A stretch of 32,000 nucleotides of DNA from Opitutia bacterium KCR 482 (GTDB lineage: Bacteria > Verrucomicrobiota > Verrucomicrobiia > Opitutales > Intestinicryptomonadaceae). A model generated the notes under the pieces. It was not told where the DNA came from and did no database searches. It saw nothing but the letters and a program-made list of their open reading frames with translations. The position numbers and the translations under genes are program-made. Positions 4,914-28,970 of the stretch are shown piece by piece. Location of the stretch: assembly GCA_029269845.2 (NCBI GenBank), contig CP149973.1, positions 480,001 to 512,000 of the forward strand, read 5' to 3'. How positions within the stretch are numbered: the first letter of the stretch is position 1; each line of letters opens with the position of its first letter.

Positions 4914-4990
4914 GGGCGATTAGCTCAGTTGGTTAGAGCGTCTGTCTTACACACAGAATGTCGCAGGTTCGAGTCCTACATCGCCCACCA
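4914..4990 (+). tRNA. tRNA-Val (anticodon UAC), CCA encoded
   Basis: Acceptor stem gggcgat (4914-4920) pairs with atcgccc (4980-4986). D-arm is tagctcagttggttaga. Anticodon stem-loop is tctgt-cttacac-acaga with TAC at 4948-4950. T-arm is gcaggttcgagtcctgc-like. Discriminator is A, followed by CCA (4988-4990). Confidence 0.93.
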
Positions 4991-12267: not shown

Positions 12268-12326
12268 CGCGTCGGACGCATGGCGGCGCAACGCGCGGTT
12301 TCCCCGCTCAAAAATCTTCCGAGCGC

Positions 12327-12362
12327 AAAAAAATCGGGCTTTGAAATAAAGCCCGATTTTTT
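12327..12362. terminator. Bidirectional intrinsic terminator between convergent bfr and the CapD-like gene
   Basis: aaaaaaa-tcgggcttt-gaaat-aaagcccga-ttttttg, a perfect stem with flanking A-run and T-run. Confidence 0.85.
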
Positions 12363-12376
12363 GCGTCCGCGCCGCC

Positions 12377-16359: not shown

Positions 16360-17397
16360 TTACAGCGACTCCGTCGAAAGGAAACGCCTGTCGACAGCCT
16401 GCGCCCCCACAATCACGCTTGTGCCGAATATCTCGTTGACCGACGCCCCGCGCGAAATTTCCGCAACGGGCTTTGTCAGCCCCGTAAGCACACGGCCGTA
16501 GCAGTTGACGGTGGAAACAACCTGCAACATGCTCGAGGCAATGTTGCCCGAATTGAGGTCGGGGAAAATCAGCACGTTCGCGCGGCCGGCAACGGAACTG
16601 TGGATCCCCTTCAAGTCGGCGACTTCGCGTTTGAGGGCGGCGTCTACTTGAAGCTCGCCGTCGATGTCTATTGCGATGTCGCAAGTCTTCGCCTTCTCGT
16701 GCGCGAGCGACGTCGCCGATTTTACCTTCAAAACCGAATGCTGTGTTGACGATGGCGTTTTCGAAGTATACGCAAGCATTGCAACGCGCGGAGTTTCGAG
16801 GGTGAGGTGGTTCACGAGAATCGCGGTCGTTATCGCGATGTCGCAGAGCTGCGGCTCTGTGGGTTCCGGAATTACGCCGCAATCGGCAAGGAAAAGGTCG
16901 CCGTTAATGCCAAGTTCGGGGTTTTCGGTGGAAACCACCATCAGCGAACTCGCCGTGCCGAAACCCTTTTGGAGCGGGATTATCTGCAAGACTGGGCGCA
17001 ACACGCCAGAGGTCGCGACGGTCGCGCCCGCAACCATGGCGTCGGCGCGTCCGGTCGCAAGCATGAGGGTTGCAAAATAGTTGGGTTGAAGCGCCATCGC
17101 ATTGATTTCCTGCGAATCGAAACTGCGGAACTTCGGCAAGCCGTGGAGGAGCTTCATGAGCGCAACGGAGTCGTCCGCCGAAACGGGGTCGATAATCTTG
17201 ATGCCGTCCAAACGGATGTCCAAAGACTTGGCGATGTCTTCAATCTTCTGCTTTTCGCCGATGATAATCGGCACGCCCAACTTGCGCGTTGCAAACTGGC
17301 GCGCAGCCTGAATTACGCGCGGGTCGGTGCCGTCGGGATAGACAATTCTCTTGGGGTGGTTCTGCAACCGTGCGGAAAGTTTTTTTACCAGTGCCAT
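16360..17397 (-). CDS. pta: Phosphate acetyltransferase (PTA_PTB family, short form)
   Basis: 345 aa. It shows ...RIVYPDGTDPRVIQAA..., ADAMVAGATVATSGVLRP, FLADCGVIPEPT, IDGELQVDAAL, VAGRANVLIFPDLNSGNI and KPVAEISRGAS. A phosphate butyryltransferase assignment cannot be fully excluded. Confidence 0.85.
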   Translation of the reverse strand: MALVKKLSARLQNHPKRIVYPDGTDPRVIQAARQFATRKLGVPIIIGEKQKIEDIAKSLDIRLDGIKIIDPVSADDSVALMKLLHGLPKFRSFDSQEINAMALQPNYFATLMLATGRADAMVAGATVATSGVLRPVLQIIPLQKGFGTASSLMVVSTENPELGINGDLFLADCGVIPEPTEPQLCDIAITTAILVNHLTLETPRVAMLAYTSKTPSSTQHSVLKVKSATSLAHEKAKTCDIAIDIDGELQVDAALKREVADLKGIHSSVAGRANVLIFPDLNSGNIASSMLQVVSTVNCYGRVLTGLTKPVAEISRGASVNEIFGTSVIVGAQAVDRRFLSTESL

Positions 17398-17424
17398 ATC
17401 TCTATAATTTACTTGTTTCCCCCC

Positions 17425-17453
17425 ATTACATCATTTTCACACAGTATAGTCAA
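17425..17453 (-). promoter_or_regulatory. Candidate sigma70-type promoter of pta
   Basis: Minus strand reads TTGACT (17448-17453), a 17-nt spacer, then TGTAAT (17425-17430). The -10 ends 27 nt upstream of the pta ATG. Confidence 0.45.
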
Positions 17454-17454
17454 G

Positions 17455-17568
17455 CCCCAAGCAGGCTGCAGCCTGCACGGCGTCGGAGCTTCGGGCGCAA
17501 GGTGCGCCTCCCTGCGGAGCTTCGCTCCTTTCTGTTATTATGCGCGGCAAGTTACTTGCCGCTTTTCT
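17455..17568 (+). ncRNA. Candidate small structured RNA (unknown family) ending in an intrinsic terminator
   Basis: There are successive hairpins on the + strand: a 16-nt perfect palindrome gcaggctgcagcctgc (17461-17476), ggcgca-agg-tgcgcc (17494-17508) and ggagc-ttc-gctcc (17516-17528). These are followed by gcggcaag-tta-cttgccgc-ttttct (17544-17568). The word ggagcttcg occurs twice. No promoter was identified, so the 5' end is a guess. Confidence 0.25.
17544..17568 (+). terminator. Plus-strand intrinsic terminator in the pta-helicase intergenic region
   Basis: 8-bp stem gcggcaag/cttgccgc, loop tta, then ttttct. The T-run exists only on the + strand, yet no + strand CDS precedes it. Confidence 0.55.
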
Positions 17569-17640
17569 CGGTTAGCCCGTATTGGCTTCGCCAATTACTG
17601 GCGTTGGGATATGCGATTATTTTTTAAGAAACTAATTTAA

Positions 17641-17736
17641 ATAGACGCGCTTTGCGCGGATAAAAAAAGTAAAAGCGAAAATCCGCAAACGCAGATTCTC
17701 CGCCTACCGACCCACCCCGCTTTTATCCCAAAACAA
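17641..17736. repeat. Structured intergenic repeat, partial/degenerate unit A0
   Basis: Hairpin ctttgcgcggat...atccgcaaac has an A-rich apical region. The tail cgcctaccgacccaccccgcttttatccca matches the tails of the other units (gaaacgccctacccaacttttatccca). Confidence 0.55.
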
Positions 17737-17894
17737 CCTAAAAATCTTTGTGCGTTAGCACTGTAATTTTAGGGGCGTTAGAGTGCCGTTCAGGCGGTGG
17801 CTTTCCCGCGATTGCGGGGTGCGTGGCGTACGCGGCTATCCGCAAACATTAGTCGGCTCGCTAAACGCCCTACCCAACTTTTATCCCAAAGCCC
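17737..17894. repeat. Structured intergenic repeat, unit A1 (subtype of B3, 3' half degenerate)
   Basis: The leader cctaaaaatctttgtgcgttagcactgtaattttaggggcgttagagtgccgttcaggcggtggctttcccgcgattgcggggtgcgtggcgtac aligns with 26655-26741. The apical loop is collapsed (gcgtacgc). The tail is ctaaacgccctacccaacttttatccc. Confidence 0.8.
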
Positions 17895-18050
17895 CCTAAA
17901 AACTTCGTGCGTTAGCACTCTAATTTTAGGGGCGTCAAAATGCCCCTATAAGAGTGGCTTTGCGAGTGGCTCAGGGTGCGTGGCGTACTGACGTACGCGA
18001 GCAGTCTGAGACACTCGTGAAACGCTCTTAGAGGGGTATTTTCACGCCCC
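17895..18050. repeat. Structured intergenic repeat, unit A2 (near-identical to B4); overlaps the helicase stop codon
   Basis: 17921-18050 matches 26808-26939 with only a handful of differences. The long hairpin spans 17943-18036 (cccctataagag ... ctcttagagggg), with an apex gcgtac-tgac-gtacgc. Confidence 0.9.
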
Positions 18051-20138
18051 GTACAGTTCGTAGGTTGAGGGGTCTATGCTTTCCAAGAAGCGGCTTGCCT
18101 GTCGCATTTCGAAATTGCCTCCCACCGCGCTTACCCTCGGGTACGAAATTATCAGCAAATCCATCGCCCGCGTCGATGCCACATAAAACAGCCTGCGCTC
18201 CTCCTCGACGTCGCCGTCGTCTATGCTGCGCTGGGTCGGGAAAAGCCCCTCCGCCGCGCCGATTACGAACACCACCGGAAACTCCAAGCCCTTTGCCTGA
18301 TGGACTGTCATCAGCCTTACGCGCCCGCCGACTTCGGACTCGCGCCCCTCGGCGTCGCTGATTTCGAGAGCCACGCTTGCGAGAAAATCGTCGAAGTCGT
18401 CGAATTTCGAGGCGTACTCGAAGAGCGCGTCGAAGTCCGCCGCGCGTTCCTCCCAGTCTTCGTAAAGGGTCTTCATGGCGTCGCGATACCAGCCGCCGCA
18501 CGCGCATTTGATGATTGCCTTGGGCGAAAAATCCGCCTCCGTCGTATTTTCGGCGGCTGGGTCGGCGGGGGCTCCGCGTTCGGACGCGTGCGCCATGTCG
18601 GCGAAAAAGTCGGTCTGGACTGGGATTTTTTCCGCGGAGTCCGCCTCGGCGTGTTTTTCGGAACGCTTTGCGAGTTCCACAAGCCCGCCGAGTTTTTCGA
18701 TGTCGGCGGCGGCGGCTTCGAACATCTGCTTTGCCGCGGCGGGGACTTTTGCGAGCACCTTTTTGTCGGAGAGAACGCGCCACTCCGGAAGCGATTTCGA
18801 CGCGGCGACTTCGCGGATTTTTTCGAAAATCTTGAACGCGGTTTTGTCGCCGATTTTCGGCATGAAGCGGCAGAAGCGCAGGAACGAAACGTTGTCCTTG
18901 GGGTTTGCGACGAATTTTATCTGCGAAACGATGTCCTTGACGTGCGCCTGTTCGAAAAATTTTACGCCGCTTGTCATCACGAACGGAATTTTTGCGTATT
19001 GGAGCTGCAACTGCAAGTCCATCGCCTGAAAGTGCGAGCGGTAGAGAACGGCGATGTCGTCGTACCCGTAGCGTCCGCCCGACTCTATCTCGGCGATTGC
19101 CCGCGCCACGTTCCGCCCCTGCGACGCGCCGTCCATTGCGGGCATTACGCGCGGCTTGAAGTTGCCGTCGCGGGCGGGAACGAGCGTTTTTTTGAACTCC
19201 TCGTCGTCAAGCTCCATGCCGTCGAGTATTTTGTTTGCAAAGTTCAGAATCTGCGGCGAGCTGCGGTAGTTGCGCTCTATCTTGTAGATGTAGGCGGCGG
19301 GATAGCGTTCGCGGAAGCGGAGAATGTTGTCGATTTCCGCGCCGCGCCAAGAGTAGATGCACTGGGCGTCGTCGCCGACCGCGCTTATGTTCCCGCGAGA
19401 GGCAAGCAGGTCGAGAATGTCGGACTGCAACTTGTTCGTATCCTGAAATTCATCGACGAGAATGTTCCCGAACCTGTCGGAATATTTTTTCAGAATGTCG
19501 GGGTTTTCGGAAAGCAGTTTGAGCCAGAGTTCGAGAAGGTCGTCGAAGTCGCAGTTGTTTGCGGCGCGTTTTTCCGCCTCGTAGGCGCGGGCTATTTCGG
19601 CGATTTGCGACGCCGGCGTTTCAATCCAGTCGAACCTGTACGCCATGGCGGTCTGGATTGTGGAGCGCGTGTTTCGCGCGTAGCTTATGATTTCGCGCAA
19701 AAGTTTTGAGCGCGGGTTGTCCTTGTTCGAAAAGAAATGCGGGTACGACTCCTCTACCGCCTTTTTTATCACTTTGTCCGAATCCTCGGTGTCCAAAATC
19801 CCGAAGTTGGGTTCAAGCCCGAGAGCGCCGCCTTCGATGCGCAAAAACCTGTTGCCTATCGAGTGGAACGTGCCGCCCCAGAACGAACGCGCGGGATAGC
19901 CCGCCAGCGACTCTATCCGCGCGAGCATTTGGTTTGCCGCCTTGTTCGTGAACGTGAGCAGAAGAATGTCGCGCGGGCGGAATCCGCATTCGGAAATTAG
20001 CCACGCCACGCGGTATGTTAGCGTGCGCGTCTTCCCCGACCCCGCCCCCGCGAGCACGAGCGCGGGACGGTCGGGCGGCGAAGTCACGGCGGCGTACTGG
20101 TCGGAATTGAGTTCGGCGTTGAAGTCGATTTTTTCCAC
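18042..20138 (-). CDS. UvrD/PcrA/Rep-family ATP-dependent DNA helicase (SF1)
   Basis: 698 aa with a GTG start at 20138 (gtggaaaaaatcgac...). Motifs are LNSDQYAAV, Walker A AGAGSGKTRT, DEFQDTN, VGDDAQCIYSWRGA, YRS and TVHQAKGLEF. The stop TGA (18042-18044) lies inside repeat unit A2. Confidence 0.93.
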   Translation of the reverse strand: MEKIDFNAELNSDQYAAVTSPPDRPALVLAGAGSGKTRTLTYRVAWLISECGFRPRDILLLTFTNKAANQMLARIESLAGYPARSFWGGTFHSIGNRFLRIEGGALGLEPNFGILDTEDSDKVIKKAVEESYPHFFSNKDNPRSKLLREIISYARNTRSTIQTAMAYRFDWIETPASQIAEIARAYEAEKRAANNCDFDDLLELWLKLLSENPDILKKYSDRFGNILVDEFQDTNKLQSDILDLLASRGNISAVGDDAQCIYSWRGAEIDNILRFRERYPAAYIYKIERNYRSSPQILNFANKILDGMELDDEEFKKTLVPARDGNFKPRVMPAMDGASQGRNVARAIAEIESGGRYGYDDIAVLYRSHFQAMDLQLQLQYAKIPFVMTSGVKFFEQAHVKDIVSQIKFVANPKDNVSFLRFCRFMPKIGDKTAFKIFEKIREVAASKSLPEWRVLSDKKVLAKVPAAAKQMFEAAAADIEKLGGLVELAKRSEKHAEADSAEKIPVQTDFFADMAHASERGAPADPAAENTTEADFSPKAIIKCACGGWYRDAMKTLYEDWEERAADFDALFEYASKFDDFDDFLASVALEISDAEGRESEVGGRVRLMTVHQAKGLEFPVVFVIGAAEGLFPTQRSIDDGDVEEERRLFYVASTRAMDLLIISYPRVSAVGGNFEMRQASRFLESIDPSTYELYGA

Positions 20139-25919: not shown

Positions 25920-26216
25920 CTACGCGTCGTCCACAACTTTGGGAACTACTATCTGGTTGTCGCGCTTGGCGGGTGCGTTCATGAGCGCGTCCTCCACGCT
26001 CATAGCCTCGCCCTCTACGTCGTCGCGCCACACGTTGTATATCGCGTGCGCGTGCGCGCTCGGCTCGACGTTCGATACGTCGATTTCCGAAAGCTTCTTG
26101 AAATATCCCAGTATCTGACCCAACTGCTTCGAATACATCTCCTTCTCGGCCTCCGTCAATTCTATACGCGCAAGCCGCGCCACATATTCGATGTCTATTT
26201 CTCCTGTATTTGCCAT
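25920..26216 (-). CDS. gatC: Asp-tRNA(Asn)/Glu-tRNA(Gln) amidotransferase subunit C
   Basis: 98 aa. IEYVARLARIELTEAEKEMYSKQLGQILGYFKKLSEIDV is the typical GatC helix-loop pattern. It is the first gene of gatCAB. Confidence 0.9.
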   Translation of the reverse strand: MANTGEIDIEYVARLARIELTEAEKEMYSKQLGQILGYFKKLSEIDVSNVEPSAHAHAIYNVWRDDVEGEAMSVEDALMNAPAKRDNQIVVPKVVDDA

Positions 26217-26296
26217 ATCTCTATAATCTCACAAATCTATCGAACGGAGACAAGAAAAATTGACACACGCCACGAGGAAAATTCAGAAGCAGAAAT

Positions 26297-26454
26297 CTAA
26301 AAAACTTCGTGCGTAAGCACTCTAATTTTAGGCGCGTTAGAGTGCCAGTATAAGGGCGGCTTTACGCGCGGCACAGGGCGCGTAGCATACTTGGCGTATG
26401 TAAGCGGTCTGGGACGCGCGCGAAACGCCCTACTACACTTTTATCAAAGAACAA
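26297..26454. repeat. Structured intergenic repeat, unit B1
   Basis: Leader ctaaaaaacttcgtgcgtaagcactctaattttaggcgcgttagagtgcc. Hairpin agtataagggcggctttacgcgcggcacag...ctgggacgcgcgcgaaacgccctactacact with an apex gcatac-ttggc-gtatgt. Tail is cttttatc. Confidence 0.85.
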
Positions 26455-26648
26455 CCTAAAAATCTTCGCGCCGTGCGCTCTAATTTTAGGGGCGTCAAAG
26501 TGCCAGTATAAGGGCGGCTTTACGCGCGACACAGGGCGCGTAGCATACTTGGCGTATGTAAGCGGTCTGGGACGCGCGCGAAACGCCCTTAGACTGGTGC
26601 TTTCACGCGCCGTGCGAAACGCCCTACCCAACTTTTATCCCAGCGCAA
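26455..26648. repeat. Structured intergenic repeat, unit B2 (near-identical hairpin to B1, plus a ~40-nt extra segment)
   Basis: 26499-26587 is nearly identical to 26341-26430. An extra segment ttagactggtgctttcacgcgccgtgcgaaacgccc (26589-26624) duplicates the gaaacgccc tail. The leader hairpin is gcgc-cgt-gcgc instead of gtgc-gtaa-gcac. Confidence 0.85.
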
Positions 26649-26807
26649 CTTAAAATCTTCCGCGCCGTGCGCTGACTTTTTAGGCGCGTCAAAGTGCCGT
26701 TCAGGCGGTGGCTTTCACGCGATTGCGGGGTGCGTGGCGTACTGGCGTACGCGAGCAGTCCGCAAGCGCGGGGAAACGCCGCATCAACGGTGCTTTGACG
26801 CGCCGTG
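26649..26807. repeat. Structured intergenic repeat, unit B3
   Basis: Hairpin 26694-26793 is gtgccgttcaggcggtggctttcacgcgattgcgg...ccgcaagcgcggggaaacgccgcatcaacggtgc, with an apex gcgtac-tggc-gtacgc. Confidence 0.85.
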
Positions 26808-26940
26808 TAATTTTAGGGGCGTCAAAATGCCCCTATAAGAGTGGCTTTGCGAGTGGCTCAGGGTGCGTGGCGTACTAAACGTACGCGAGCAGTCTGAGAC
26901 ACTCGCGAAACGCTCTTAGAGGGGCGTTTTCACGCCCCTA
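26808..26940. repeat. Structured intergenic repeat, unit B4 (near-identical to A2); overlaps the 3' end of the GNAT gene
   Basis: The hairpin spans 26830-26924. Flanking 20-mers aggggcgtcaaaatgcccct (26815-26834) and aggggcgttttcacgcccct (26920-26939) are inverted repeats matching at 18 of 20 positions. Confidence 0.9.
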
Positions 26941-27410
26941 CCGTAGAAGATGGAAGATTCTCCGGGGGAATAATAGTCGGATATTTCCGCTTCTTTCACA
27001 AAGCCCAGTTTTTCGTAGAATTTTCTTGTCGGCAAATACTGTTCCCTGCCCGACGTCTGCAACAGCAGCTTTGTTGCGCCGCGCTCAGCAACGTCGGCCA
27101 AGATTGCCTCGACAAGCCGCCGCCCTATTCCGTGCCCGCGAACCGTATTGTCAACCGCAATCCAGTCGAGATAGTAGAGCGATTCGCAGCATGCCTCGCG
27201 CTCGTACGACGCAAACCCGACCACCCTGCCGTCAAGCTCCGCGAATATGAAAATTTCGCCGCTTCCGTCGATTGCCCCGCGCAGCTCCTCTTCGGCGCAG
27301 TCGTACTCGTCGAAAACCCTGTCGAAAAAACCGCTCGATTTCATGATTTCGCGCACGCGCGGAATGTCGGCAAGCGTCGGCGTCCGCCTGATTGCAAGCT
27401 CACTTTTCAT
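26916..27410 (-). CDS. GNAT family N-acetyltransferase
   Basis: 164 aa. The acetyl-CoA motif VRGHGIGRRLVEAI and an FY..LGF motif are present. The ATG (27408-27410) overlaps the last codons of the upstream ATP-grasp gene by 11 nt. The last 8 codons lie in repeat unit B4. Confidence 0.88.
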   Translation of the reverse strand: MKSELAIRRTPTLADIPRVREIMKSSGFFDRVFDEYDCAEEELRGAIDGSGEIFIFAELDGRVVGFASYEREACCESLYYLDWIAVDNTVRGHGIGRRLVEAILADVAERGATKLLLQTSGREQYLPTRKFYEKLGFVKEAEISDYYSPGESSIFYGRGVKTPL

Positions 27411-28893
27411 TTTTTTCGTTCCTTTTCGAGTCCTCGACGAGGTTTTTCGTTTTGTTCACCCTGTCCATGAAGCCGCGCATGATTGTTTCGTAGAGCGACA
27501 TTCCCGCGATTTTGTCCTCGATGCCCGCATCGATGTTCGGGTTGTCGTTGATTTCAATCAGAAGCACCCTGCCGTCGTCGGTCTCCTTCACGTCTACGCC
27601 GTAAAGCCCGTTGCCGACGAGGTTTGCGGTTTTCAAGGCGACGTCCAGCACGCGCTTGGGAACGTCGTCTATGTGGAGCGTTTCGAATCCGCCCTCGGCG
27701 TTGTTTTTGTCTTTGTTGACAATCTGCCAGTGCTTTTTTGCCATGAAATATTTGCACGCAAAAATCGGCTTGCGGTCGAAGATTCCGACGCGCCAGTCGA
27801 ATTTTGTCGGCACAAATTCCTGCGCGATGAGCAGGTCGGAGCGGCGCAAAAGCTTTTCGAGAACCTTTTTCAATTCGCGCGAATCGTCCACTTTGTAGAC
27901 GCCCTGCGAGAACTGGCTGTCGGGCTGTTTTATGACGATGGGGAAGGGAATTTCGGATTCGATTTTTTCGAAATTGTCCTTGTGGACGATGAACGTTTTT
28001 GGCGTCGGAATCCGCCGAATCGCCGCCTGTTCCGCCTGAAAAACCTTGTTTGCGCAGCGGATAATCGAGTTGCAGTCGTCCACAACCACAATGCCCTCAG
28101 CCTCTGCGGCGCGGGCGAAAGTGTAGGTGTAGTTGTTGACGTTTGTGGTGGCGCGGATAAAGATTGCGTCGAACTCGTTGAGCCTGTCGAAGTCGTCCTT
28201 TGTGATGAACTCGCAGGAGAAGCCGACGCTTCCGGCGGCGTGCGCGAACTTCGAGAGGGCGCGGGGATTCGACGCGTGAAGCTCCTCGTTTTCGTCAATC
28301 AGAATGCCGATTGAGTAGCGGCTCTTCGACGGCGACTCCGACGCCCTGTGGCGGCGCGTTATGTATTCTTCGGCGACCGACGAAACGAAGTCGCGCTCGT
28401 CGCCGTGAATGTCGTGCGAGGAAATCGGTTTGACGCCGCAGAGTTTCCACTTTTTCTTGCCGCGCTTGAAATCGGCGCGGAACATCGGAGCGCGGAAGAG
28501 GTTGAAGAGCCTGCGGGCGAGCCGCGCGTACGCGGGGTTCACGCTGCACCCGAAGTAGACGTCGAGCTTGAACTTGCCGTCGCCGCAGTTTGCGAGCGCG
28601 CGGTTTGCGACGTCGGAAACGTCGTCGGACATGTGTTTTATCATTTCCTGCGAGCGGAAATCCATAATCGTCTTCACGGACGGTTCGGGATTGTGCATGC
28701 GCGCGCGGGCAAGCAGCGACACATAGTAGCCCATATCCTGATATTTGAACGCGTTGCAGAGGTTGAAAACCCTGAACGCGCCGAGCCGCGCAAATTCGGG
28801 GTCGGTGATGTATCGGCGGGGCGAGACAACGCGCACGCCCGCAATCTGCAACGACCATTTTTCTGGATTGCCCGCTACGAATATAATCTCCAT
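27400..28893 (-). CDS. RimK-type ATP-grasp amidoligase with an N-terminal RLAN-like domain
   Basis: Start taken at ATG 28893 (MEIIFVAGNPEKW..., residue 18 of track ORF 27400..28944, whose own start is GTG). The C-terminal half shows the ATP-grasp/RimK pattern (FPIVIKQPDSQFSQGVYKV, LIAQEFVPTKFDWRVGIF, GVDVKETDDGRVLLIEINDNP). The N-terminal ~200 aa (YQDMGYYVSLLARARMHNPEPSV...) resembles the RimK-like ATP-grasp N-terminal domain family; that call is from memory. Confidence 0.85.
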   Translation of the reverse strand: MEIIFVAGNPEKWSLQIAGVRVVSPRRYITDPEFARLGAFRVFNLCNAFKYQDMGYYVSLLARARMHNPEPSVKTIMDFRSQEMIKHMSDDVSDVANRALANCGDGKFKLDVYFGCSVNPAYARLARRLFNLFRAPMFRADFKRGKKKWKLCGVKPISSHDIHGDERDFVSSVAEEYITRRHRASESPSKSRYSIGILIDENEELHASNPRALSKFAHAAGSVGFSCEFITKDDFDRLNEFDAIFIRATTNVNNYTYTFARAAEAEGIVVVDDCNSIIRCANKVFQAEQAAIRRIPTPKTFIVHKDNFEKIESEIPFPIVIKQPDSQFSQGVYKVDDSRELKKVLEKLLRRSDLLIAQEFVPTKFDWRVGIFDRKPIFACKYFMAKKHWQIVNKDKNNAEGGFETLHIDDVPKRVLDVALKTANLVGNGLYGVDVKETDDGRVLLIEINDNPNIDAGIEDKIAGMSLYETIMRGFMDRVNKTKNLVEDSKRNEKNEK

Positions 28894-28911
28894 GACAAAA
28901 TTTTTGCCGCA

Positions 28912-28941
28912 ATTATTCAGCGCATGCCCGCCGCAAGTCAA
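28912..28941 (-). promoter_or_regulatory. Candidate sigma70-type promoter of the ATP-grasp/GNAT operon
   Basis: Minus strand reads TTGACT (28936-28941), an 18-nt spacer, then AATAAT (28912-28917). The -10 ends 18 nt upstream of the ATG at 28893. Confidence 0.45.
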
Positions 28942-28970
28942 CACTTATCGGCGGGCGCGGGAGGCGGCGG

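Follow-up and report, generated by a model that had tools for sequence, protein, structure and literature searches.

A modular palindromic repeat family with a strand-constrained long hairpin, dispersed at gene ends in a human-gut Opitutia lineage

In well-studied bacteria, small interspersed repeats influence gene expression, the rearrangement of genomes and the typing of strains. The BOX, BIME, ERIC, Correia and SPRITE elements are characterized by modularity, by RNA hairpins, by enrichment at the 3' ends of convergent genes and by effects on co-transcribed genes (PMC3049150, PMC3184786). No small interspersed repeat has been described before for the common uncultured lineage of human-gut Opitutia (Verrucomicrobiota) discussed here, and a full-text search of the literature on intergenic repeats or hairpins in Verrucomicrobia found no paper. 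This report deals with a stretch of 32,000 nucleotides of Opitutia bacterium KCR 482 (contig CP149973.1, positions 480,001 to 512,000; called the window, to which unlabelled coordinates refer), in which the gap between gatC and the gene of a GNAT acetyltransferase is occupied by a structured repeat. Its basic module is a small leader hairpin followed by an imperfect hairpin of ~123 nt ending ...ACGCSCCGT, and such modules stack head-to-tail, often behind a ~300-nt "left region" of small terminator-like hairpins. The repeat family is dispersed at many gene ends in the lineage. Recombination among copies adds, removes and exchanges array modules from strain to strain, and purifying selection keeps the long hairpin able to pair, though on one strand only. 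The reading favoured here, with a probability of roughly 0.55, is that of a lineage-specific palindromic repeat of modular build, with arrays that recombination assembles and rearranges and with a hairpin that is used single-stranded, most plausibly as RNA convergent to the neighbouring gene. The family is undescribed; its general kind is well known.

The closest described architectures are those of BOX and BIME, and the closest hairpin sizes are those of ERIC and Correia. The BOX elements of Streptococcus pneumoniae and S. suis, boxA-(boxB)n-boxC, are like the present repeat in being modular, non-coding and dispersed between genes with variable internal tandem modules, and in their extensive predicted RNA stem-loops, their clustering and nesting with other repeats and the altered gene 3' ends (PMC3049150). 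A BOX-like architecture was indeed found, namely left region + (leader + hairpin)n + constant ...CCGT end, with 1-4 units per strain. Unlike BOX, however, sequence and host are unrelated, the repeated module is itself a 123-nt hairpin, and the units follow one another head-to-tail, have a constant 3' end, show a strand-specific wobble signature and have their end locked to stop codons. The REP/BIME sequences of Enterobacteria and Pseudomonas (REPIN/RAYT) also are GC-rich palindromes in mosaic clusters with other short motifs, are biased to convergent genes and vary in cluster size between strains, and their clusters are associated with recombination and mRNA stability (PMC3184786). REPs, however, are 20-40 nt long and alternate in orientation within BIMEs, whereas the hairpins here are 122-126 nt long and all in one orientation, and unlike REPIN/RAYT no RAYT match was found here (tblastn, approximate queries, 411 kb).

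ERIC (~127 bp) and Correia/NEMIS (~104-157 bp) elements are imperfect palindromes of about the same length as the present hairpin, lie likewise at gene 3' ends and in operons, and form RNA hairpins with orientation-dependent effects that involve RNase E (ERIC) and RNase III (Correia) (PMC3184786, PMC3049150). They have terminal inverted repeats around a core and a TA target duplication, and are mostly single copies, whereas the present repeat showed no target-site duplication, its whole unit is a single fold-back, and its tandem arrays are joined to other modules. The present family is small and non-coding, with many dispersed copies and no open reading frame (ORF) conserved across strains, as is usual for miniature inverted-repeat transposable elements, but it departs from their definition in having neither target duplication nor core. 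SPRITE, the pneumococcal Rho-independent-terminator-like element, resembles the left region in its terminator-like hairpins on both strands; unlike SPRITE, the long hairpin here lacks a U-tract, and its length far exceeds that of a terminator stem. The family is placed with the small interspersed repeats because it is non-coding, modular and GC-rich palindromic, is present in dozens of copies at gene ends with housekeeping neighbours, and is patchy in distribution with recombination-driven variation.

The gatC/GNAT gap holds four head-to-tail units at 26297-26944 (array B). An earlier reading made by a model from the sequence only, hereafter the sequence-only reading, had proposed four such units of a structured repeat, which Tandem Repeats Finder, a repeat search of the window and folding bear out. 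Tandem Repeats Finder gave a block at 26297-26589 (period 158, 92% matches, score 512) that far exceeds every other tandem repeat in the window, direct-repeat families of 3-5 copies each run across 26259-26940, and three inverted-repeat pairs (26489-26516/26584-26611, 26683-26708/26779-26804 and 26814-26841/26913-26940) have arms of 26-28 nt that are ~70 nt apart. The words quoted in that reading are where it had put them (taatttta at 26323, 26481 and 26808, gacttttta at 26674, and the tails at 26422-26445 and 26616-26640). The number of four stands, but not all four units are full: B1 is without its basal 3' arm, apparently through a deletion between two gcgaaacgccct copies, as its sequence suggests, and the B4 leader is reduced to the remnant GTGTAATTTTAG. 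Moreover, the array was thought to end at 26940, but its true end is ...TACCGT at 26944. The anchor GGCGCGTCAAAGTGCC, with at most 3 mismatches, has 8 matches in the window against 1.0 expected, and two of them, at 17772 and 17929, mark a second array (array A). Array B and its neighbours are made up as follows.

26297..26330, + strand: B1 leader (CTAAAAAA..TTTTA around the small hairpin GTGC-GTAA-GCAC); from sequence, alignment and fold
26331..26454, + strand: B1 long hairpin without basal 3' arm, and tail/connector ..ACTTTTATC; covariance model (CM) 81.6 bits, -54.8 kcal/mol, alignment
26455..26488, + strand: B2 leader hairpin; from sequence and alignment
26489..26611, + strand: B2 complete long hairpin, 123 nt; -72.4 kcal/mol, z -8.0; CM 128.8 bits sense vs 64.5 antisense
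26612..26682, + strand: connector (GTGCGAAACGCCCTACCCAACTTTTATCCC + 8 nt) and B3 leader; from sequence
26683..26804, + strand: B3 complete long hairpin, 122 nt; -86.7 kcal/mol, z -9.7; CM 127.2 bits
26805..26815, + strand: junction ..CCGT/G and B4 5'-shortened leader TAATTTTAG; from sequence
26816..26944, + strand: B4 complete long hairpin (26816-26938) and terminal TACCGT; -86.8 kcal/mol, z -12.5; CM 135.4 bits
25920..26216, - strand: gatC (context; Pfam GatC), start 81 nt from the left end of array B
26916..27410, - strand: GNAT acetyltransferase (context; ORF), C-terminal tail RGVKTPL* encoded by the element

The ORFs of the gap are 34-89 aa long, the largest (89 aa, 26362-26631, - strand) lying inside the repeats, and since they sit in repeats that vary in number and phase between strains, the earlier statement that the gap has no credible ORF was right. 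It also holds that no transposase is carried and that the array is not CRISPR, as the units are 133-194 nt long and similar over their whole length, without unique spacers. CRISPR, coding sequence and canonical terminator are excluded.

Each unit begins with a leader of ~34 nt, CTAAAAA-N-CTTC-(small 4-bp hairpin)-CTSTAATTTTAGG, and continues with the imperfect hairpin of 122-126 nt, from GGSGCGTYARARTGCC to GGYRYTWTNACGCSCC, followed by GT; an optional third part is a connector ending ACTTTTATCCC + 8 nt. The hairpin had been estimated at 95-100 nt and is longer because the segment GGSGCGTYARARTGCC, taken then as leader, is its basal 5' arm. With inverted-repeat arms of ~55 nt and a loop of 4-5 nt it is one continuous fold-back without core, which includes the invariant internal loop GGC-UUU / GAAAC, and the leader and the left region lie outside its arms. 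The four complete hairpins of the window fold at -72 to -87 kcal/mol (z -8.0 to -12.5), and none of 200 shuffles folds equally well.

An alignment was made of 37 distinct hairpins, from which mispaired chimeras were omitted (L009, and one sequence common to L036, L044 and L048; such numbers denote the collected stretches); these chimeras show that single copies may lose their pairing. RNAalifold gave 45 pairs, of which 18 show compensatory double changes, and as many as 5 pair types occur at one position. Standard pairs occupy 98.7% of the 1665 cells as compared with 84.8% in shuffles, no shuffle out of 500 reaching the former figure, and slid controls all remain at 54% pairing or below. The cells that are not Watson-Crick comprise 188 G.U/U.G at 14 positions as against 5 A.C/C.A, 12 of these 14 wobble positions are Watson-Crick in other copies, and the same columns read on the opposite strand pair to only 87.7%. 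In addition, the sense strand is the more stable one in all 40 distinct hairpins (mean -80.2 vs -65.7 kcal/mol). It is because of the 188 G.U cells against 5 A.C that only one strand can be said to be constrained to fold; judged from this alignment, the window + strand, which is antisense to the neighbouring genes, is the one that folds as a single strand, be it RNA or single-stranded DNA. Mutation bias as the source of the G.U excess was considered and rejected, since it needs a ~40-fold strand asymmetry in the wrong direction: the sense strand is the template of the neighbouring genes and, to go by gene orientation and GC skew, also the leading-strand template in replication, which opposes the expected deamination bias. 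Inner, middle and outer layers of the hairpin re-assort among copies, which may come from ordinary gene conversion of a contiguous central segment with its end-points in the invariant GGCTTT and GAAAC.

A strand-specific fold with bulges and a variable centre, in head-to-tail sites that change between strains, brings to mind integron-type attC sites, of which the array would be an ORF-less cassette array (CALIN); the hairpin length of 122-126 nt also fits the Vibrio VCR-type attC (e.g. VCRs of 123-126 nt). In attC sites the 5' side carries RYYYAAC and the 3' side GTTRRRY. Here the polarity is reversed, GTTAGAG/GTCAAAG being base-proximal on the 5' arm and CTATAAC/CTTTCAC on the 3' arm, so that the attC reading is refuted on its defining motif. 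Furthermore, only 10-70 nt lie between hairpins, with no cassettes, the arrays are scattered over many loci, and no integrase is among the top 25 families of 109 flanking proteins, and such an origin is hardly credible.

The repeat is not confined to the window. Scanning of 185,579 species genomes with an exact pattern located it on 15 contigs of one metagenome-assembled genome, "Opitutia bacterium UBA4654" (Verrucomicrobiota), often at contig ends. Four pattern matches in Actinomycetota and Shewanella (L010, L011, L016 and L019) were dismissed as chance, since all fell short of the covariance-model threshold of E<=0.01 (best, L010, 17.9 bits, E 0.19). A metagenome scan gave 21 further stretches; a single assembly, OGFM01, accounts for 16 of these, on 15 contigs (761 kb). 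The total collected DNA contains 52 anchors and 40 distinct complete hairpins. Exact-protein look-ups indicate a host common in human-gut metagenomes, on contigs of up to 774 kb. In the window itself a covariance model from the 37 hairpins found the known copies only (127-135 bits sense, 61-76 antisense). Outside the species, the model detected a single, diverged copy at 71.8 bits in one with a GatA identity of 81%, in which the small leader hairpin is different but the basal stem, the GGCTTT/GAAAC loop and the GCGTAC-loop-GTACG apex are kept. No copy was found within the ~20 kb sampled from the species with GatA identities of 92% and 86%, or at gatC in those with 89% and 76%; in sister species the array is absent and the gene order is also different. 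Searches of plasmid, phage and IMG/VR viral collections gave no match to the repeat. Rfam 15 gave no family match to the repeat at gathering thresholds or at E<=10, the best scores in the array region being 10-15 bits (E 3.8-9.9), in agreement with the earlier view that it is neither tRNA nor rRNA and is not assignable to a known family. An Rfam scan and a search for further copies had been proposed with that view, together with the possibility of unconserved filler; the scan gave no match, and filler is contradicted by the strongly covarying copies, which number dozens in this lineage and a related species. The only Rfam match in the window is a tRNA gene at 4914-4987 (+ strand, 69.9 bits). 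Pfam assigns the flanking genes to unrelated, diverse housekeeping families (109 flanking proteins, top 25 families).

Variation between strains is observed directly at the gatC locus. Among ten long contigs with an identical 98-aa GatC, the GNAT-gatC gap measures 214, 371, 504, 536-559 or 686-699 nt, which corresponds to 1-4 units, and every conspecific strain carried at least one unit. In the 3-unit allele B1 is complete, the 2-unit allele is of the same type as A1+A2 of the window, and a 1-unit chimera consists of the B1 leader, the B3 5' arm and the B4 3' arm; some alleles carry left-region modules. Assembly collapse behind this 1-unit allele is unlikely, with its two joins over 12-14 nt identity and its recurrence in three independent assemblies (L036, L044, L048). 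Similarly, the uvrD-pta gap, where array A lies, ranges from 280 to 645 nt among contigs with identical Pta, with the left region present or absent and with three terminal hairpin subtypes. The deletion end-points fall within identities of 12-20 nt, as expected for unequal or ectopic homologous recombination. Array length is a ready strain marker, because it varies among strains with identical housekeeping proteins.

Gene order can also change at the repeat. In UBA4654 (L012 4950-6310) the GNAT/ATP-grasp segment is 97% identical to that of the window (26216-26944 in the window) and is followed by one unit and then by a convergent folE2 (GTP cyclohydrolase) and not by gatCAB; a different neighbour is met across the repeat, which therefore coincides with a synteny break, and the repeat is a candidate driver of such breaks. 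In the window species a pair of genes for a RimK-like ATP-grasp protein (RLAN domain) and GNAT (26916-28944) stands between a 767-aa CBM-like gene and gatC. This pair is absent in the species with 92% GatA identity (L067 228-2968), where the order is the 767-aa gene, 143 nt and gatC.

The two ends of the arrays behave differently. The right end is constant, GT beginning 36 of 39 distinct continuations after ACGCSCC, and at the B locus it reads ...CCCC-TA-CCGT. Short extensions occur as well, e.g. GT-CTAA-GCGCCGT, the first 11 nt of the next leader cut after its own CGCGCCGT, and arrays therefore end at ...CCGT wherever CGCGCCGT occurs. The unit after an internal ...CCGT, on the other hand, starts variably, at the connector, the leader, TAATTTTAGG, TTTTAGG, the 5' arm near the apex or the 3' arm. 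With a constant 3' end and a variable 5' start, the elements are suggestive of a polar or site-specific process at ...CCGT by which new copies or junctions arise. Nested or interrupted hairpins were seen at L026 2495-2700, L007 7120-7160 and L033 300-360: the first 5' arm halts at GGCTTTC, (C/T)GTAATTTTAGG and a complete second hairpin follow, and past the ...CCGT of the second the first resumes at GTGCGTGGCGTAC, with ~13 nt lost.

The right end is also tied to genes. At 24 of 26 distinct right junctions a frame on the opposite strand, with no stop anywhere in the flank analysed (108 codons or more), reads from the flank into the element and stops within -5 to +26 nt of the boundary, and in 18 terminal junctions the stop codon is encoded by the element. 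By a rough gene caller, about 27 of 32 arrays have a convergent gene at their right end; the left end lies 1-6 nt from a stop codon or 40-230 nt from a start codon. The GNAT protein of the window ends ...IFYGRGVKTPL*, its last ~8 codons and TAA stop lying on the minus strand of B4, and its ortholog in the species with 81% GatA identity ends ...FFGIDF*. The C-terminal tails and stop codons of GNAT (26916-26944) and of the UvrD-like protein (18042-18052) are encoded by the reverse complement of the terminal hairpin, and the GNAT tail follows the hairpin subtype of the strain, RGVKTPL* in the window and RRLHGAL* in L012. The combination of a strand-specific constraint with a constant end locked to stop codons is unusual, and makes the repeat an unusually clean case of a hairpin constrained on one strand with its end welded to stop codons.

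These junctions are where a non-autonomous mobile element has to be considered, that is, one served by an enzyme from another part of the genome, which would either recognise the hairpin as single-stranded DNA or copy it from RNA; new copies would land at or beside gene ends and beside older copies. The enzyme could be a nuclease of the HUH/RAYT or IS200/IS605 type, with ...CCGT as its cutting site, or a reverse transcriptase that primes at the 3' hairpin. Such an element would agree with the constant ...ACGCSCCGT end, with CGCGCCGT as a mark of alternative ends also inside the leader, with the ladder of 5'-shortened starts in following units, some of them inside the hairpin, with the nested arrangement at L026 2495-2700, with the strand-specific fold, with right ends at -5 to +26 nt from stop codons, and with the patchy distribution (present in the species with 81% GatA identity, none in the ~20 kb of those with 92% and 86%). 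However, neither a target-site duplication nor a clean empty site was seen, in 411 kb around the repeats tblastn with IS608 TnpA and E. coli RAYT as approximate queries returned nothing at E<0.8, and many junctions are equally explicable by recombination at shared CGCGCCGT. In addition, IS200/IS605 elements prefer the lagging-strand template, whereas the constrained strand is apparently the leading-strand template, to go by gene orientation and a weakly negative GC skew. Mobility of this kind is thus possible but rather doubtful. A bolder form of the idea, in which the hairpin is the business end of a new propagation system, copied from a 3' hairpin and homing to the last codons, or else in which the arrays represent a new ~160-nt RNA class, hypervariable and convergent on gene 3' ends, is improbable, although copying from a 3' hairpin (RNA-templated or guided into place by a single-stranded DNA hairpin) would explain the 5'-shortened ladders ending ...CCGT.

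As regards the favoured reading of a recombining interspersed repeat, the element would be selfish or semi-domesticated DNA of the BOX/BIME/ERIC type, whose hairpin may act as a single-stranded nucleic acid, most plausibly as RNA transcribed toward the 3' end of the convergent neighbour. The very stable duplex of ~45 bp could block exonucleases or polymerases, or could be a target of an RNase III-type enzyme, and might thereby insulate adjacent transcription units. Transcription, function and mode of spread are all matters that we infer, and several observations weigh against this account. Common descent from few arm subtypes inflates the covariation counts. At least three assemblies (L036, L044, L048) retain chimeric hairpins that are mispaired, and selection on each individual copy is therefore not absolute. 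A promoter scan found no sigma-70-like promoter in the units, and the long hairpin is not a canonical terminator, because there is no U-tract on either strand. In tandem-gene contexts a read-through mRNA would carry the weaker complement of the hairpin, because the constrained strand is antisense to the genes. Moreover, neither the 26 distinct terminal junctions nor the window arrays showed a target-site duplication, left boundaries vary, and neither a clean empty site nor a cognate transposase was found. By eye, CTAAAAAT and CTATATT upstream of the leader hairpin look like -10 candidates, but no -35 element supports them. The only terminator-like match in array B, at 26787-26806, is part of the B3 arm, and 1.7 are expected by chance.

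If the hairpin does act as RNA, the arrays might instead be genes of trans-acting small RNAs, each of ~160 nt, with promoters in the left region or the leader and with processing into units. The pairing constraint on one strand with its conserved G.U pairs and the invariant internal loop GGC-UUU / GAAAC are consistent with such genes, as are the small-plus-long hairpin layout, retained in the second species despite another leader sequence, and the AT-rich stretch after two terminators in the left region. The dozens of strain-variable copies with mispaired chimeras and truncated units are, however, more repeat-like than gene-like, no promoter-like or terminator-like signals surround the units, and the hairpin, being paired over nearly its whole length, offers no obvious single-stranded stretch as a seed; small-RNA genes are accordingly a quite unlikely identity. 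Whether the repeat is an RNA element or a mobile element of the single-stranded DNA or retro type is directly testable with existing gut metatranscriptomes.

Array A consists of two units (A1 and A2, 17738-18052) between the pta and uvrD-like genes and is preceded by a left region.

17440..17735, + strand: conserved left-region module ending ..GCTTTTATCCC; small GC hairpins, terminator-like sites and an AT-rich stretch, present or absent according to strain
17738..17886, + strand: A1, leader and 5' half of the long hairpin, joined at the apex to a connector (GCGGCTATCCGCAAAC..ACTTTTATCCC); from sequence and alignment
17887..18052, + strand: A2, leader and complete long hairpin 17929-18050, and GT; -82.7 kcal/mol, z -11.2; CM 130 bits
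18042-20138, - strand: UvrD-like gene (context), TGA stop overlapped by A2
16360..17397, - strand: pta (context; Pfam PTA_PTB), downstream of array A in gene direction

The left region, ~300 nt long, is found again upstream of many other arrays. It has terminator-like sites on both strands, two on + and two on - (5 found vs 1.6 expected), and an AT-rich stretch after two terminators. Its small GC hairpins are GCAGGCTGCAGCCTGC, GGGCGCAAGGTGCGCC, GGAGCTTCGCTCC+TTTCTGT, GCGGCAAGT..CTTGCCGC+TTTTCT, ATTGGCTTCGCCAAT, CGCGCTTTGCGCG and GCGGAAATCCGC. It occurs also at L012 5904-6140 and upstream of gatC in L042, L047 and L050. Because it is present also without hairpin units, e.g. at L005 6028-6195 and L006 1220-1396, it may be a separate REP-like or terminator-like repeat family.

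The genes just past the left ends of arrays A and B, pta and gatC, share an exact 14-mer, CATATCTCTATAAT, at 17395-17408 and 26214-26227 (twice in the window vs 0.02 expected), which marks their start codons (in gene sense ATTATAGAGAT-ATG, then GCA). It was ruled out as a part of the element, being absent from the other arrays, and could be a shared promoter, a leaderless start or a small duplication. Finally, the covariance model also matches weakly, on both strands, at 12320-12369 (15 bits, E about 0.25); an unrelated short palindrome of the intergenic region near 12.3 kb is the probable source.

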